The notes beneath the pieces are model-generated. The model saw only the letters and a list, made by a program, of their open reading frames with translations, did no database searches and had not been told where the DNA came from. From the IMG/VR virus record IMGVR_UViG_2541047698_000018: a stretch of 42,267 bases of DNA; one strand, written 5' to 3'. This DNA is from a virus. Lineage: Duplodnaviria; Heunggongvirae; Uroviricota; Caudoviricetes. Below are positions 4,687-29,454 of this stretch, piece after piece; position 1 is the stretch's first letter, and the number at the start of each line of letters is the position of its first letter. A program made the position numbers and the translations under genes.

Positions 4687-5882
4687 GACTCCACCGTTAT
4701 AACGATATTTCCCGGGGTACAGGACGCAGATTCGTTGTATCTGATATCAATGTTTGATGACGACAAAGCCCCCGGGGATTTCCCAATCGTCAGTTCCTGA
4801 ATATCGTAATAGCGTGCATTCCCGCTACTCACCACGCCAAGATTCGCCGGTGAGTAAATGCGACTTAAAAGGACCGAATCACCAATCATCAGACTATTGA
4901 TATAGTCGGAAATAGCCTGCTGGATCTGCTGCCCTATCTGTGAGGTATAACCCGTAAAAACTTTTAATTTAATCCGGGCGTAAACAGGCACATCACTGGA
5001 ACGCGAGAATTTGATTACATGGGGATTGCCGTATTTATCCGGAACCGTAACGGATGTTGTACCGTGAGTGGCTGTCCCCTGGCCTTTATTTCCTCTGATA
5101 GCCTGAGCAATATCCGTCACATCACCGCCATCCACAATTACAGCAACAGAGTGTGGCGGTAACCCGTTACCGTCCTCCGAACCAGTATCGTTTTCATAGA
5201 GTTTGTGGCGGGTTACACCGGTAACATTAGAAACAGCACCATCCAGTGCTTCAAATGGGGTTATTGATGGCAACGCAACACTTTGCGACTGGCGGATACG
5301 TAACTCCGCATCAGTTTCTGCTGGAGTGCCTACAGTAGCTGCAGCAGGATTGGTTACCGAAACCCAGCCACGGGTTGGCGTATTAATTTCAGTGATAGTT
5401 CCAGCCAGCGCCGCCACTGCACCACTGACGGAACATTTTGCGGTCACCATCACTGTACCATCCACGCCGACCACCACTGAAGCAGGCAAACGCCATATCA
5501 CATTATTACTGTCTTTCACGCTGCCATTAATGATGGTTGTTCCGGCAGTTCCTGTAAGAAGCAAATCAACCGTAGAATTCGTCGCGCCTTTACGTGAAAT
5601 ACCATTTATTTTCACGTTACTGGTCAGTGCAGCCCCATAGCCGGTTGCCGGTGAAAAACAGTTGTAGACAGTTATCGCCATATTATTGGCATCATGAATC
5701 GCCAGCGCCATCAGAGCCACCATCTGGCCGTCTTTGCTGTCCGGTTCGAGGTAGGCATCACTGCCATAAATCTGCTGAAAATAGCTAATCAGGGTGCTGA
5801 GTATCGTCTGATAATCAGGCGCACTGATCCCCTCCGCGGTTACCTTTGCAGATAAACCGAGAGAATCAAGGTTCAGAGCCAT
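4683..5882 (-). CDS. Baseplate J-like protein
   Basis: 399 aa; size and position match Mu gp47 / P2 J family. Confidence 0.6.
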   Translation of the reverse strand: MALNLDSLGLSAKVTAEGISAPDYQTILSTLISYFQQIYGSDAYLEPDSKDGQMVALMALAIHDANNMAITVYNCFSPATGYGAALTSNVKINGISRKGATNSTVDLLLTGTAGTTIINGSVKDSNNVIWRLPASVVVGVDGTVMVTAKCSVSGAVAALAGTITEINTPTRGWVSVTNPAAATVGTPAETDAELRIRQSQSVALPSITPFEALDGAVSNVTGVTRHKLYENDTGSEDGNGLPPHSVAVIVDGGDVTDIAQAIRGNKGQGTATHGTTSVTVPDKYGNPHVIKFSRSSDVPVYARIKLKVFTGYTSQIGQQIQQAISDYINSLMIGDSVLLSRIYSPANLGVVSSGNARYYDIQELTIGKSPGALSSSNIDIRYNESASCTPGNIVITVES

Positions 5883-25156: not shown

Positions 25157-25579
25157 TTATGCCGCCGAGCAGCTCCTACGCAAAGTCCTGATAGTCTGAG
25201 GCTTTGACTGAACCGACTGATCCATTTCGAGCACCACATCCAGCATGGCTAAGCAACCGTCAATAAATCCCTCTGCCGCCTGAAGCCTCTTCAGAACGTG
25301 GGTGTGAGATACGCCGAGCTTCTCACCCATCGCCCGCACGGGCATGGCCTGGACGTAATGCCACTCAAGGAGCGTGCACAGATACGGATCTTTTTTCTTC
25401 AGGCAGCTCATAGCGGAGTTGATGATAAGACCGTCATTGTCACTGCATTTCAGCCTTCCAGACTGCGTCGCGGGTAGCAGATTCTTAAACCCGGCTGCAA
25501 CAGGAGGAAAGTAGACGCTACCACCTTCACTCGCAGCCCAGCCCCCCCAGCGCTCTAAAACCTGTTGAATATTACGCAT
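25157..25579 (-). CDS. Late antiterminator Q (QuuD-like)
   Basis: 140 aa; MRNIQQVLERWGGWAA...AAGFKNL...KRLQAAEGFIDGCLAMLDVVLEMD matches DLP12 QuuD as recalled. Confidence 0.8.
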   Translation of the reverse strand: MRNIQQVLERWGGWAASEGGSVYFPPVAAGFKNLLPATQSGRLKCSDNDGLIINSAMSCLKKKDPYLCTLLEWHYVQAMPVRAMGEKLGVSHTHVLKRLQAAEGFIDGCLAMLDVVLEMDQSVQSKPQTIRTLRRSCSAA

Positions 25580-25624
25580 AGCTCTGACCTCTACGTTTTG
25601 CTACGTTTGGAAATTTTCTACTAC

Positions 25625-25855
25625 TCAATACTCGTTGAATGTCAGGTGGCCGCTAACACTGACGTTTGGCCCGTCAGATAACACAAGCTGGAAATTGTCG
25701 TCGCAAACAGAGCAGCCGAGGTCAATAACTACCGTTTTGTCGTGTTTATGCGCTCGCATGGCGACATCGCGAATAAACACGCTGTTACTAGCGCAACGTG
25801 GGCAGGTAATTTCGTTATTTCCGTCGATATGATTTTTTAATCCTGAAACTTTCAT
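25625..25855 (-). CDS. Small zinc-ribbon protein
   Basis: 76 aa with CPRC ... CSVC pairs; between origin region and Q. Confidence 0.4.
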   Translation of the reverse strand: MKVSGLKNHIDGNNEITCPRCASNSVFIRDVAMRAHKHDKTVVIDLGCSVCDDNFQLVLSDGPNVSVSGHLTFNEY

Positions 25856-25904
25856 GTTGTTTACTCCAGCTAGTTATTTGCAAATATTTGCAAGTTAATT
25901 TCCG

Positions 25905-26170
25905 GGTGACGGCTAGGTGACGCGTAATTACATATCCGTCACCTGCTGCAAATCGCGCCATATAAGGCCTGAAGATGTTTTAGGTGACAGGTGACGGTTG
26001 ATTTTAGTTCTATATATATATAAGCGATCGTATAATACCTAAAATACACACTCTCGCGTATATAGTTTTAAATTCTGCCGTCACCTGTCACCTTTAGCAC
26101 ATTTCCCATTGTTTTATATATAATTTTTAAGGTGACGCTTAAGCATTTTGCCGTCACCTAGCCGTCACCT
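25905..26170. repeat. Iteron cluster with AT-rich core; putative origin of replication
   Basis: At least 9 copies of GGTGAC(G/A) / CCGTCACC in both orientations (e.g. 25905, 25936, 25983, 25990, 26078, 26131, 26151, 26162) flanking tatatatatata and GATC. Confidence 0.5.
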
Positions 26171-26172
26171 TT

Positions 26173-28434
26173 TTACAATCCAGATTGCAAAATTTCGCAA
26201 GATTTATATATTTCGCGCAATTCTTCGTTGCTGAAATCGTTATTTTTTACAAGAATCCAAATCCTATATACAAACCCGTCAATTTTTACGCGTACGGGTT
26301 CCCGCTTTGTTCTTTCTTTCAAAATGCGAGTAATATGCTTCTGGTTAATTTCTACATCCATTCCTGCTTCTGCCAGTATTGCGTTAACAATTTGTTGATA
26401 AGTCATTGCTGGCACAGGCGGATTATCCAGGATTTCAATAAGAGCAGCCTCCACATCGCTCTTATTGCTTTCAATCATCAGAAGGCGTTCTTTCGTCTCG
26501 GGGGCGCGCTGCCAGTTAAAGCGAGACAGGTCAACGCCCATCAGATACCAGTACACCTGGGCGATAAAGTCGCTGTCGCTTAGCGCACCGTACAGGCTGG
26601 CGTAATGCTCTTCAGTTGCGGCGAAGTCAGGGCCCCCCAGCACAGCGATACGTCGGTCTTCCTCTGGCAGCGCCAGCGCATCAAAGTGGTTGGTGTAGAA
26701 CAGAAAGCCGGTGTATATATCCATCGTTTTTTTGCTGCCATATTTGCGGTTCACTTCAAACCGTGGTTCTGTCAGCACATCGCGGATCTTATCGTTCACC
26801 TCATACCGCTTATCGTTTTCGCGCACCTCGTCAATGGTGCATAGAAGCGTATTGTACAGATAGTCATGGAACTGGTTATCGCACAGGATCTTCATGCGAG
26901 TACGAGCACAGTTCCACGGGCCGAGCACGCGCTCCATTAACTGGCTGACCCATCCTCTGCCCGTACCATGTGCGGTAGCCACATGCAGAATAGAAATCGG
27001 GCATCGACGCTCCGGATGCTGAACCATCCACCCCAGACGGGCGATGAAAAACTCGCGCTGCCAGGCATCAGGTACCAGATACGCCATATGATTAAGGAAC
27101 GTGGACACCTTACTTGTATCCGCTGTACGTGGATGCTCAGGCATATAAAATTCGTTTATCTCAAACCGCCCGTCGAAACGCTCGATAATACGTCCCGCAC
27201 CGGGCTTATAGCCTGTCGTCTCAGCAATCTTCTTATGCCGATGCTCTATCCACCGTTTGGTTGCGGGAGTTGGTTGCCCTTTCCCTTCTGGCGGGAACTG
27301 GTAAGGCGCCATCAGGTTTTTGAACGACTTCATATCCATCATGCACTGATATGGCGGTCGGCTAAGATCACATACCTGGTCACCCTCGATGACGTAGATA
27401 AAGCGTTCCAGAAAATGAGCTGTCATATCTGTATTAATATCGGTAAATTCAGGCTTATCGCCATCTTCAACCACCGTGAGATCTTCGAACAGGGATTGCG
27501 TATAGCCGTAGCCTTCCAGCCAGTCGGCATCAGTAAGCCCCGCATCGGTGTTGTGCATGCTTTTAAAATGTCCCTGTTCAAATCCCCCCGTCCCTTTTGG
27601 GAAATACTTAATGGATGTTTCGCTGCAACCGTTGCTGTATTCTGACTCATCCCGAAACGGTTTCAGATTGCGGGAACCATCAGAGCTGACTGACAGAGTC
27701 CACCCGTTCGCGTCAAGCCAGTCAGCGACATCATCTGTCGCGGAAGGATCAACACAGGAAAGGTCACGCTGACGTCCCGCACCTGCGGTATAGCTGTCTT
27801 TCACGGGTAAGTTATCCGCTAGACGCTGCCACAGGCTTTCGAGCTGTTCAGATGTAATTTTCAGAGGTTCGCTGGGCAAACCGCAGTCCCACTGAATACG
27901 TTCGCCTGCCGGATGGGTACCACAAGCCACAAACTGCTGGCCCTTAGCGAGCAGCTCTATTTGTTTGTTTTCGCCTTCCAGGCGGTGACCACGTTTACGG
28001 TAGTCGCCATCAACAGCAATCAGGTATAGGCATTTATGACTGTCAGCCCGCCAGCGACGTGGCGGAAGTTCCCCCAAGCATGACAGGATAATATTGCGTA
28101 CGATCTCCTGCATCCCGGCGTCATTGATATCGCAGTCCAGAGCCACCACCCCGTCGCCAGTACGAACGCAAATACCGTAATCGGGTTCGTTCGACCACCG
28201 GGCAAAATCGTTTTCCGTAACAACATAGTTAGCCCAGTCGGGGATACCAACAACCTTACGTTGGCCATTGTAGCGACTGGGAGTTTTGCCGAAATTATGA
28301 GACAGCTTGCTATTAGGCGACAGTTCTGCACAGGGATTGGACACCACAGGTAAAAGCCTGTCTGTCATCCCCAACACCAGATCGAAGTGGAACCACTCAT
28401 CGGGCGTAGCTCCCCATGGTTTGTTATCAGACAT
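26173..28434 (-). CDS. DNA primase/replication protein (Prim-Pol domain plus C-terminal domain)
   Basis: 753 aa; GDGVVALDCDIND and KGQQFVACGTHPAG resemble Prim-Pol; no canonical Walker A seen in C-terminal half. Confidence 0.7.
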   Translation of the reverse strand: MSDNKPWGATPDEWFHFDLVLGMTDRLLPVVSNPCAELSPNSKLSHNFGKTPSRYNGQRKVVGIPDWANYVVTENDFARWSNEPDYGICVRTGDGVVALDCDINDAGMQEIVRNIILSCLGELPPRRWRADSHKCLYLIAVDGDYRKRGHRLEGENKQIELLAKGQQFVACGTHPAGERIQWDCGLPSEPLKITSEQLESLWQRLADNLPVKDSYTAGAGRQRDLSCVDPSATDDVADWLDANGWTLSVSSDGSRNLKPFRDESEYSNGCSETSIKYFPKGTGGFEQGHFKSMHNTDAGLTDADWLEGYGYTQSLFEDLTVVEDGDKPEFTDINTDMTAHFLERFIYVIEGDQVCDLSRPPYQCMMDMKSFKNLMAPYQFPPEGKGQPTPATKRWIEHRHKKIAETTGYKPGAGRIIERFDGRFEINEFYMPEHPRTADTSKVSTFLNHMAYLVPDAWQREFFIARLGWMVQHPERRCPISILHVATAHGTGRGWVSQLMERVLGPWNCARTRMKILCDNQFHDYLYNTLLCTIDEVRENDKRYEVNDKIRDVLTEPRFEVNRKYGSKKTMDIYTGFLFYTNHFDALALPEEDRRIAVLGGPDFAATEEHYASLYGALSDSDFIAQVYWYLMGVDLSRFNWQRAPETKERLLMIESNKSDVEAALIEILDNPPVPAMTYQQIVNAILAEAGMDVEINQKHITRILKERTKREPVRVKIDGFVYRIWILVKNNDFSNEELREIYKSCEILQSGL

Positions 28435-28437
28435 GGG

Positions 28438-28638
28438 TTACGCCTTTTGTCTAGCTGTCACTTCCTGAAAAAGCTTTTCTATCGCACGTACTGTAGAAAA
28501 GCGAGGGTCAGAATGAACCCCGGTAAGAAGCCGACTAATAGAAGACTGCTTCACGCCTGCAATTTCGGCAATTTGGTTTTGGGTATACCCTGAATCAATC
28601 AAGCTTTTGACCATCTCTTGTGGTGTTAGTCCGGACAT
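28438..28638 (-). CDS. Cro-like HTH regulator
   Basis: 66 aa; YTQNQIAEIAGVKQSSISRLLTG helix-turn-helix; divergent from cI; GGAG Shine-Dalgarno. Confidence 0.65.
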   Translation of the reverse strand: MSGLTPQEMVKSLIDSGYTQNQIAEIAGVKQSSISRLLTGVHSDPRFSTVRAIEKLFQEVTARQKA

Positions 28639-28779: not shown

Positions 28780-29454
28780 ATGATTGATACTACCGATATC
28801 CTTTCTCAAAACATCAAGTACCTGATGGACAAAGCCAAGATAAGCTCGATAACTGAGCTGGCACGTCGGTTACAGCTGAACCAACCAACGCTACACAGGC
28901 TGGTATCAGGAGAGGTGAAAGATCCGAAATACGCAACGTTAAAGCAGATCGCCGACTACTTCCACGTGTCACCAATAGACCTGGCAGAAAGGAGCCTTCA
29001 AGAAATGGAGAAAGAGGACGCGACAGGTATAAAAACGTATATTTCTCTTAGGTTTAATAAAGTACCTGTTTTGGGAAACACTCAGCTAGGCGTTGGAGGA
29101 CTTTGGAGCGACACCCAATATTCAGTAGGTAGCAGTGATGGTTTCATATACTGGCCGACAAAGGATGAAGATGCATACGCCCTGAAATGTGTTGGTGATT
29201 CAATGATGCCTAGAATCAAAGAGGGTGAGTTCGTAATCGTCGAACCCAACCACGACTACACTCCTGGTGATGAAGTACTTGTGGTTACCCAGGACGGTGA
29301 GGTCATGGTTAAAACCTTCTTGTTCGAACGCGATGGCCTGTTCCATCTAATGTCTGTAAATGAAGATCATCCACCAGTCAGAGTACCACGCGAAAACATT
29401 GAAAAAATCCATTACGTGGCGGGGATCGCCAAATCCGCGCTACGCATGTACTAA
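28780..29454 (+). CDS. cI: CI-type repressor (HTH plus S24 LexA-like peptidase)
   Basis: 224 aa; N-terminal HTH; C-terminal GDSM (Ser nucleophile) and downstream Lys (VMVKTF). Confidence 0.85.
   Translation: MIDTTDILSQNIKYLMDKAKISSITELARRLQLNQPTLHRLVSGEVKDPKYATLKQIADYFHVSPIDLAERSLQEMEKEDATGIKTYISLRFNKVPVLGNTQLGVGGLWSDTQYSVGSSDGFIYWPTKDEDAYALKCVGDSMMPRIKEGEFVIVEPNHDYTPGDEVLVVTQDGEVMVKTFLFERDGLFHLMSVNEDHPPVRVPRENIEKIHYVAGIAKSALRMY

Follow-up and report, generated by a model that had tools for sequence, protein, structure and literature searches.

A 42,267-nt Caudoviricetes record (IMGVR_UViG_2541047698_000018; "the window" in the following means this whole stretch) contains a 317-bp gap (25856–26172) between two minus-strand genes, a 753-residue open reading frame (ORF) upstream and a 76-residue ORF downstream. 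The gap is filled with short repeats, raising the question of what it does and which protein reads it. A preliminary description had called it the likely replication origin, and the comparison with relatives supports that claim, showing a conserved layout and a repeat motif that appears to switch together with one small segment, the wing, of the upstream protein. From these sequence comparisons, we consider it very probable that the gap is the phage replication origin and that it is recognized by the protein encoded directly upstream, a Prim-Pol primase fused to a superfamily 3 (SF3)-like helicase. This reading draws on ten mirror-symmetric sites past the stop codon, their conserved layout, concerted motif switches, and the coupling to the wing. 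The same layout is shared by Staphylococcus aureus pathogenicity islands (SaPIs), Escherichia coli phage-inducible chromosomal islands (PICIs), and plasmid pRN1, and downstream inverted repeats are also carried by small DUF5906 plasmids. Finally, the gap has no DnaA-box enrichment, promoter, terminator, or Rfam family.

The hexamer GGTGAC was found 32 times on the two strands of the window, compared to 16.1 ± 3.9 in shuffled sequences. Ten copies lie within 25905–26169, in two stretches (25905–25995 and 26080–26169), where the background rate elsewhere predicts 0.14 per 265 bp (Poisson P(≥10) = 7e-16). In the rest of the window, a stretch of 265 bp had two copies at most, so there is no second iteron cluster. 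The window has 18 copies of the 8-mer GGTGACRS (GGTGAC[A/G][C/G]) where 4.4 are expected, and ten of the 18 are at the same places. Across 5000 dinucleotide shuffles of the gap, the count of any 6-mer stayed at six or below. The preliminary description had counted at least nine GGTGAC-type copies in both orientations; the exact number is ten. Five are on the plus strand (25905, 25916, 25983, 25990, and 26131) and five on the minus strand (25938, 26080, 26087, 26153, and 26164), and the two sets of five sites that flank position 26037 mirror each other. Measured from the stop codon in the gene direction, with arrowheads giving orientation, the offsets are 4>, 15>, 35<, 81>, and 88>, followed by 176<, 183<, 230>, 250<, and 261<. 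The array was said to adjoin a Prim-Pol primase gene, and this was confirmed: the 753-residue ORF matches PF09250, and the first iteron begins 4 nt past its stop codon, both in the window and in 24 relatives. The layout had also been called a textbook one, which was not borne out, as the sites are dyad-symmetric 8-mers instead of direct 17–22 bp iterons with DnaA boxes. A search for DnaA boxes in the gap returned one match with one mismatch, which is the chance level and no enrichment.

To compare the element among relatives, we used 24 loci from a protein scan of IMG/VR (full or C-terminal matches, 68–99% identical) and a further 16 loci from exact-protein look-ups and a GTDB scan (36–74% identical). 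The latter came from Xenorhabdus, Arsenophonus, Serratia, Erwinia, Izhakiella, Limnobaculum, and Pasteurellaceae (Avibacterium, Caviibacterium); over the full protein, identity to the window was 58% in Xenorhabdus, 56% in Arsenophonus, 46% in Limnobaculum, and 36% in Avibacterium. All 24 IMG/VR loci had eight to ten copies of one hexamer past the stop codon, at offsets that agreed within a few bp (4>, 15>, 37<, 81>, and 88>, then 174–186<<, 226–231>, and 248–264<<). Depending on the locus, the hexamer was GGTGAC, GGTGGC, GGTAAC, or GGTGTC, and with flanking bases the site classes were GGTGACGG (the window), GGTGACAG, GGTGGCAG, GGTAACAG, and GGTGTCAG. The same origin plan was present in 14 of the 16 distant loci, which added the classes GGTTGCA and TGACACAG. 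The preliminary description had suggested looking for the motif in related phages; the layout was kept in about 40 relatives, while the word itself switched by class. Within each genome all ten sites switch together, from E. coli to Pasteurellaceae, and this concerted change in every lineage points to selection by one shared binding specificity. The distant relatives have a common gene order (cI, cro, primase-helicase, gap, Q, lysis, terminase), and in all relatives the array is followed directly by Q or by a single small ORF that precedes Q. The two exceptions to the plan, L093 and L096, both from the Arsenophonus endosymbiont of Aleurodicus, had no array downstream, relics of the C-terminal domain, and altered tails; they are probably decaying prophages in an endosymbiont genome. 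In Arsenophonus nasoniae (L083), the last codons of the gene overlap with the first two iterons (...AAG GTG ACA GGT GAC ACT TAA).

The protein that reads the sites was sought among proteins that differ little and have different iteron classes. Five such proteins (L004, L005, L006, L008, and L020) are 98–100% identical to the window protein over residues 1–700, and their differences are confined to the last ≈50 residues, where identity is 71–75%. The class-specific residues are 712–716 and 721–723, in the wing hairpin of a predicted winged helix. Class GACG has EPVR at 712–716 and FVY at 721–723, and class GACA has EPVR and IAQ. Class GGC combines EAVK or ETAK with MTV, LTV, or DTL; class AAC, QPTDL or PATEL with MGY or IGY; and class GTC, EPVR or EPLR with CTN, FTN, or STQ. 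These pairings hold on three protein backbones, and in Xenorhabdus GKKERPW pairs with GGTGGCA and GKTERPW with GGTTGCA. The wing hairpin (residues 712–727) was the sole protein segment that tracked the iteron class; the recognition helix varies conservatively, without tracking it. A plausible division of labor is that the recognition helix reads the constant bases (GGT..C.G) and the wing reads positions 4–5. There are at least seven iteron classes, each with its own wing sequences, and no mismatched pair among about 40 loci, an association for which tight linkage is a confounder.

Wing codons and origin, at a distance of 50–400 bp from each other, diverge together in one contiguous block, which starts ≈132 nt before the stop codon. 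Co-variation of wing and origin across an unchanged stretch was therefore rejected, as the window differs from L004 and L008 in one such block, and independence from linkage cannot be claimed. The argument for the binder rests mainly on all ten sites changing together and on the protein differences being limited to a DNA-binding wing. It was complemented by a mosaic test. Loci L003 and L009 share the wing and the iterons of the window (origin 96% identical), and their cI/cro regions and downstream genes have no similarity to it; conversely, the Q of L004 is 99.5% identical to that of the window, and its iteron class is different. This mosaicism excludes cI, Cro, Q, and the 76-residue ORF as the binder. 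That role probably falls to the C-terminal winged-helix domain of the primase-helicase itself.

Several matches define the domains of this protein. Residues 75–185 match the Prim-Pol family PF09250 (E = 2.8e-7; 31.6 bits against a cutoff of 22.8), residues 488–595 match DUF5906 (PF19263; E = 9.6e-14), and the protein matches PHROG 1156, "DNA primase" (1.8e-87). Residues 456–659 match the helicase part of the primase-polymerase from phage NrS-1 (6k9e/6k9c; E = 1.8e-8). A phmmer search against all PDB chains at E ≤ 1 returned just the NrS-1 primase-helicase and a chance match to CagT, and the Pfam scan of the 753-residue protein gave DUF5906 and no match to D5_N. The domain order is thus Prim-Pol, a DUF5906/NrS-1-type SF3-like helicase (≈456–659), a predicted winged helix (660–727), and a terminal helix. 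An AlphaFold model of residues 590–753, made with a 17-sequence alignment, had a predicted local distance difference test (pLDDT) score of 79 overall and ≈90 in the winged-helix part; it folds as a winged helix and places the class-specific residues in the wing hairpin. A helicase with a C-terminal winged helix, as predicted here, is also the initiator type of the SaPI/PICI class. The P-loop reads H-G-T-G-R-G-W (26950–26970, residues 489–495), with Arg at the position of the Walker A Lys of NrS-1 (6k9e; GTGKG), and this Arg was present in 25 of the 25 homologues read (36–99% identical). Most relatives have a zinc-binding-like Cys/His cluster between primase and helicase (CPFEDGHS...HFKCLHASCAH). 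At residues ≈255–300, the window lineage has a different segment without most of the Cys (RDESEYSNGCSETS...HFKSMHNTD), as seen by comparison with P0002, P0007, P0013, and others.

In the mechanism that we propose, the C-terminal winged helix would bind the ten 8-bp sites (GGT-NN-C-R-G; here GGTGAC[G/A][G/C]), with the recognition helix probably contacting the constant bases and two to four wing residues (712–716, 721–723) probably contacting the variable ones. Since five sites on one side face the five on the other, two helicase assemblies would load head-to-head around the 80-bp centre. They would melt the centre and encircle the single strands with no separate loader or DnaA. The Prim-Pol domain of the protein would then start synthesis, after which a host polymerase would take over. 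The origin would lie inside the rightward early operon (cro, primase, ori, Q), and early transcription would pass through it. Binding, melting, loading, and priming are all inferred.

The candidate melting region has 72% A+T (25998–26079), compared to a window mean of 50.6%. An AT-rich core with a TA tract and a GATC site had been noted before, and all of these are present (TA tract, 26011–26022; GATC, 26026–26029; also CGCGTATATA, 26055–26064), along with a conserved inverted pair, CTATATAC...GTATATAG (CTATATA...TATATAG). The GATC part did not hold up, as the site is missing in more distant relatives, and GATC/Dam control was rejected on this ground. The centre is made of alternating purine–pyrimidine runs, of 12, 10, and 8 nt in the window, 22–24 nt in other Enterobacterales, and 34 nt in Limnobaculum. 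In three Xenorhabdus loci (L082, L092, and L097), perfect alternation extends over 44–50 nt (ATATACATGTACGCGCACGCACACAC...) at offsets of ≈106–156 past the stop codon, a kind of sequence that is prone to Z-DNA formation or easy melting beyond plain A+T richness.

TTGCAA-type repeats were also said to flank the core. One perfect palindrome of this type exists (TTGCAAATATTTGCAA, 25878–25893), palindromic in the window lineage alone. The second copy (26185–26200) has one mismatch and lies beyond the region first reported, inside the primase coding sequence, where it encodes C-E-I-L-Q and has synonymous variants in relatives. The repeats are neither enriched nor conserved as an origin feature. A role as operators was rejected, since the pattern is not enriched in the window and inspection of the cI–cro intergenic region by eye showed nothing similar. 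Both the TTGCAA repeats and the GATC site appear incidental to the origin. The palindrome is part of a border element, AACTTGCAGAAAnnTGCAAATAAC, which Enterobacteriaceae relatives keep whatever their iteron class and which is present even after the VapE-type initiator gene of L027 (≈5485–5510). It was not found in relatives from Xenorhabdus, Arsenophonus, or Pasteurellaceae. The element may mark a module junction or be the site of a host factor, and it perhaps belongs to the origin.

Other functions for the array were weighed against replication. Its place in the early operon, just before Q or one small ORF in all relatives, would suit mainly transcriptional control, in which a regulator or the tail of the primase-helicase acts as a roadblock that sets late-gene timing. 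A scan of the gap for promoters and terminators found no terminator, and the transcribed (minus) strand lacked a promoter; with no promoter for Q in the gap, transcripts must cross the array. However, the iteron class does not follow Q, cI, or cro, a roadblock would have no obvious use for an AT-rich alternating centre or head-to-head symmetry, and the same layout occurs behind DUF5906 genes on small plasmids without Q and behind VapE-type initiators. We therefore regard control of transcription in place of an origin as very unlikely, though a regulatory side-effect may exist on top of origin function. It is likewise highly improbable that the array works as a DNA or RNA stem-loop or cruciform read by its shape, as was proposed for the 100-nt stem-loop 3′ of pRN1 orf904, where the integrity of such a structure is needed (PMC4234260). 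The single strands do fold far better than shuffles (z = −5.3 for 25975–26100 and z = −8.4 for 25898–26176), and the predicted fold is a long hairpin with the iterons themselves forming stems, in inverted arms of 35–40 nt that are 80–83% complementary. Pairing, however, requires only that each arm match its partner, and leaves unexplained why the same 8-mer recurs, in every genome, in all five arm pairs and as direct repeats within an arm, and why it tracks a protein segment. Moreover, the long spacers (sites 3–4 versus sites 7–8) are not complementary, and an Rfam scan of 25400–26600 matched no family, giving just sub-threshold microRNA-hairpin matches that the dyad explains. Melting could still be helped by the extrusion of hairpins.

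The remaining alternatives concern another binder or another kind of site. Binding by the 76-residue Cys-rich protein, the "zinc-ribbon protein" of the preliminary description, or by some other phage regulator has the adjacency of the two elements in its favor. This protein has no Pfam or PHROG match, and relatives that retain the origin have another ORF in its place or none: an unrelated 96-residue ORF takes its place in Escherichia phage vB_EcoM-606R2, Q directly follows the origin in L080–L083, and L003 and L009 have a different protein with the same iterons. We consider this binder extremely improbable. Clustered short inverted repeats are also found in partition (centromere-like) and packaging sites. 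There are, however, no partition genes nearby, the terminase genes are ≈3 kb away, each of the 33 complete E. coli genomes with the sequence has the prophage in its chromosome, and the coupling is to the tail of the primase-helicase, so that a site of either kind is hardly credible here.

Several points weigh against the assignment of the gap as an origin read by the wing-bearing helicase. The protein has no detectable sequence similarity to SaPI Rep or P4 alpha. Each half has five sites, at odds with a presumably hexameric ring. With Arg in place of the Walker A Lys, ATPase activity can only be assumed. No single alignment column in the C-terminal domain perfectly separates the four classes; the signal exists only as the segment 712–727, and any "code" depends on the backbone. 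Lastly, part of the co-variation between wing and iterons could be simple linkage. We also considered a more far-reaching scheme: the iteron classes would be orthogonal replicon specificities, set by two to four wing residues and not by the recognition helix, and kept by diversifying selection against cross-firing or origin theft among co-resident prophages and satellites; in addition, the initiator-loaded array would gate read-through into Q, late expression, and lysis until the origin has fired. In this full form, the scheme is improbable.

The closest functional parallels to the proposed origin are in the phage satellites. SaPI origins have 6–12 short (5–6 nt) iterons just downstream of rep and an AT-rich centre, with at least two iterons per side in opposite directions, read by the C-terminal winged helix of a self-loading helicase; in SaPI5, PriRep5 is a primase fused to the helicase (PMC9371898). 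The Rep–ori pairs of SaPIs and PICIs are cognate (PMC9371898, PMC6092414). The same plan is functional in E. coli PICIs (EcCICFT073) and has been called unique to PICIs (PMC6092414). The candidate origin of the window shows all of the layout features of SaPI1, SaPIbov1, SaPI5, and EcCICFT073. In contrast to these satellites, the window element is a complete phage with cI, cro, Q, lysis, and terminase genes and lacks the satellite gene content; its initiator, which combines a DUF5906/NrS-1-type helicase with a Prim-Pol-type (archaeo-eukaryotic primase, AEP) primase, has no detectable sequence similarity to SaPI Rep or PriRep; and its family has ten fixed site positions across genera. The window family thus appears to be a counter-example to a PICI-only origin plan, one that would work like a SaPI/PICI replicon without being a satellite.

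The pRN1 protein ORF904 combines a Prim-Pol domain (PF09250) with an SF3 helicase and a C-terminal winged helix in a single polypeptide (PMC2777425, PMC4234260), and an essential cis element, a ≈100-bp dyad, lies directly downstream of its gene (PMC4234260). For proteins of this kind, assembly 3′ of their own gene was proposed, and similar arrangements were noted in phages, including Bordetella phage BIP-1 (PMC2777425, PMC4234260). The window protein shares the N-terminal PF09250 Prim-Pol domain, and the window also has a downstream dyad, with the folding scores given above. In pRN1, no cognate site was found and the element is read as a stem-loop, whereas the window dyad consists of ten copies of an 8-mer that tracks the wing.

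Small plasmids and chimeric proteins extend the comparison. Two 8.9-kb circular plasmids carry inverted GGTTACA-type repeats after a DUF5906 homologue: Proteus mirabilis pW47-1 (L084, NZ_CP104987, 4596–4866) and E. coli pRHB04-C06_4 (L085, CP058022, 4384–4663). Their primase-helicase homologues are 25–28% identical over residues 341–753. Plasmid pW47-1 also carries a tail tape-measure gene, and because of this gene it may be a phage-derived or satellite-like element. In a group of other prophages (L027, L031, L056, and L079; P0046 and P0056–P0120), the same Prim-Pol N-domain (residues 1–323, ≈61–97% identical) is fused to a VapE-type (PF05272) half. Directly past these genes are inverted iterons around a TATATATA centre, with the quite different words TACTCAACC (ten copies), GGTGGTTCCA, TGTACCAAC, and GTATCCAC.

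The alpha protein of satellite phage P4 binds 8-bp "type I" iterons (TGTTCACC), which resemble CCGTCACC, and P4 replication needs a second cis site (crr) kilobases away. The window has no such second iteron cluster. Like the window protein, P4 alpha has the order primase, SF3 helicase, and C-terminal winged helix in one protein; its primase is DnaG-like (PMC2777425), in contrast to the Prim-Pol type of the window. Repeated initiator sites beside an AT-rich unwinding element are a layout that the candidate origin shares with lambda (O/ori) and with iteron plasmids (RepA, pi, TrfA), and the lambda origin is also in the rightward early operon. However, the lambda origin lies inside the O gene, and these systems use direct 17–22 bp repeats, DnaA and/or a loader (P, DnaC), and a non-helicase initiator. 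The window sites are 8-bp cores in inverted sets, DnaA boxes in the gap are at the chance level, and the Pfam scan showed no Rep_3 or O-type domain. In SV40 (large T antigen) and papillomaviruses (E1), inverted short sites flank an AT-rich or easily melted segment, on which two hexamers assemble head-to-head. Their origin-binding domain differs from that of the window protein in having another fold and a position N-terminal to the helicase, and these are eukaryotic viruses with no fused primase.

The gene content around the gap shows that the element is a compact lambdoid-like temperate phage with a single primase-helicase in place of O and P. Q, holin, endolysin, Rz, and both terminase subunits are encoded by the window and by vB_EcoM-606R2, a 97.6% identical relative, whose annotation places the lysis and terminase genes further downstream; the terminase genes follow Q and the lysis genes. 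The slot between origin and Q is variable, being filled by the 96-residue ORF in vB_EcoM-606R2 and empty in distant relatives. The candidate origin sequence was found in 33 of 5426 complete E. coli genomes, always chromosomal and in one copy, with no annotated feature beneath it. NCBIfam returned no family, and the cumulative GC skew of the window gave no origin signal and tracked gene orientation. In Shiga toxin (Stx) phages, the interval from cI to the late region contains, in the type called Eru10, just Q and one primase-polymerase protein of PF09250; that work typed genes only, stated that nothing was known about replication of Eru phages, and described no origin or iterons (PMC8951638). 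The Eru papers make no mention of iterons. In gene order, Eru10 corresponds to the compact arrangement of the window. The features of the locus are collected in Table 1.

Table 1. Coordinates of the candidate origin, its sites, and the neighboring genes in the window.
Feature	Position	Strand	Remarks
753-residue primase-helicase gene	26173–28434	−	ORF and translation; Pfam PF09250, PF19263; PHROG 1156; NrS-1 helicase match
Predicted winged-helix codons (residues 660–727)	26254–26457	−	H1, b1, H2, H3 (698–709), wing b2 (714–718), b3 (721–727)
Wing hairpin codons (residues 712–727, EPVRVKIDGFVYRIWI)	26254–26301	−	Protein alignments, DNA difference profile, mosaic test
Iteron 1, GGTGACGG	26162–26169	−	4 nt past stop codon
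Iteron 2, GGTGACGG	26151–26158	−	11 bp from iteron 1, same orientation
Iteron 3, GGTGACGC	26131–26138	+	Convergent with iteron 2
Iteron 4, GGTGACAG	26085–26092	−	Overlaps iteron 5, 7-bp register
Iteron 5, GGTGACGG	26078–26085	−	Inner site, gene-proximal half
Origin centre, candidate melting region	25998–26077		80 bp, 72% A+T; symmetry point ≈26037
Iteron 6, GGTGACGG	25990–25997	+	Mirrors iteron 5
Iteron 7, GGTGACAG	25983–25990	+	Mirrors iteron 4
Iteron 8, GGTGACGG	25936–25943	−	Mirrors iteron 3
Iteron 9, GGTGACGC	25916–25923	+	Mirrors iteron 2
Iteron 10, GGTGACGG	25905–25912	+	Mirrors iteron 1
Distal border element, consensus AACTTGCAGAAAnnTGCAAATAAC	25872–25897		≈25 bp; contains TTGCAAATATTTGCAA
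76-residue Cys-rich (zinc-ribbon-like) ORF	25625–25855	−	Starts 50 nt past last iteron
Q antiterminator	25157–25579		Downstream of 76-residue ORF
Cro-like helix-turn-helix gene	28438–28638		Upstream of primase-helicase gene
cI-type repressor gene	28780–29454		Divergent; further upstream

These results assign a candidate origin and initiator-binding motif to a widespread, uncharacterized module of temperate Enterobacterales and Pasteurellaceae phages, the compact cI–cro–primase–Q type that is called Eru10 in Stx phages. Judged from sequence, what the family adds to a known kind of replicon is a natural series of at least seven protein–DNA specificity pairs. It amounts to a natural experiment, in which near-identical proteins a few wing residues apart go with origins that are one or two bases apart at all ten sites. 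The DNA-recognition code of self-loading primase-helicases thereby becomes directly testable, and the family could yield sets of orthogonal replicons. The presence in complete phages of an origin plan considered unique to PICIs also bears on the source of satellite replicons.

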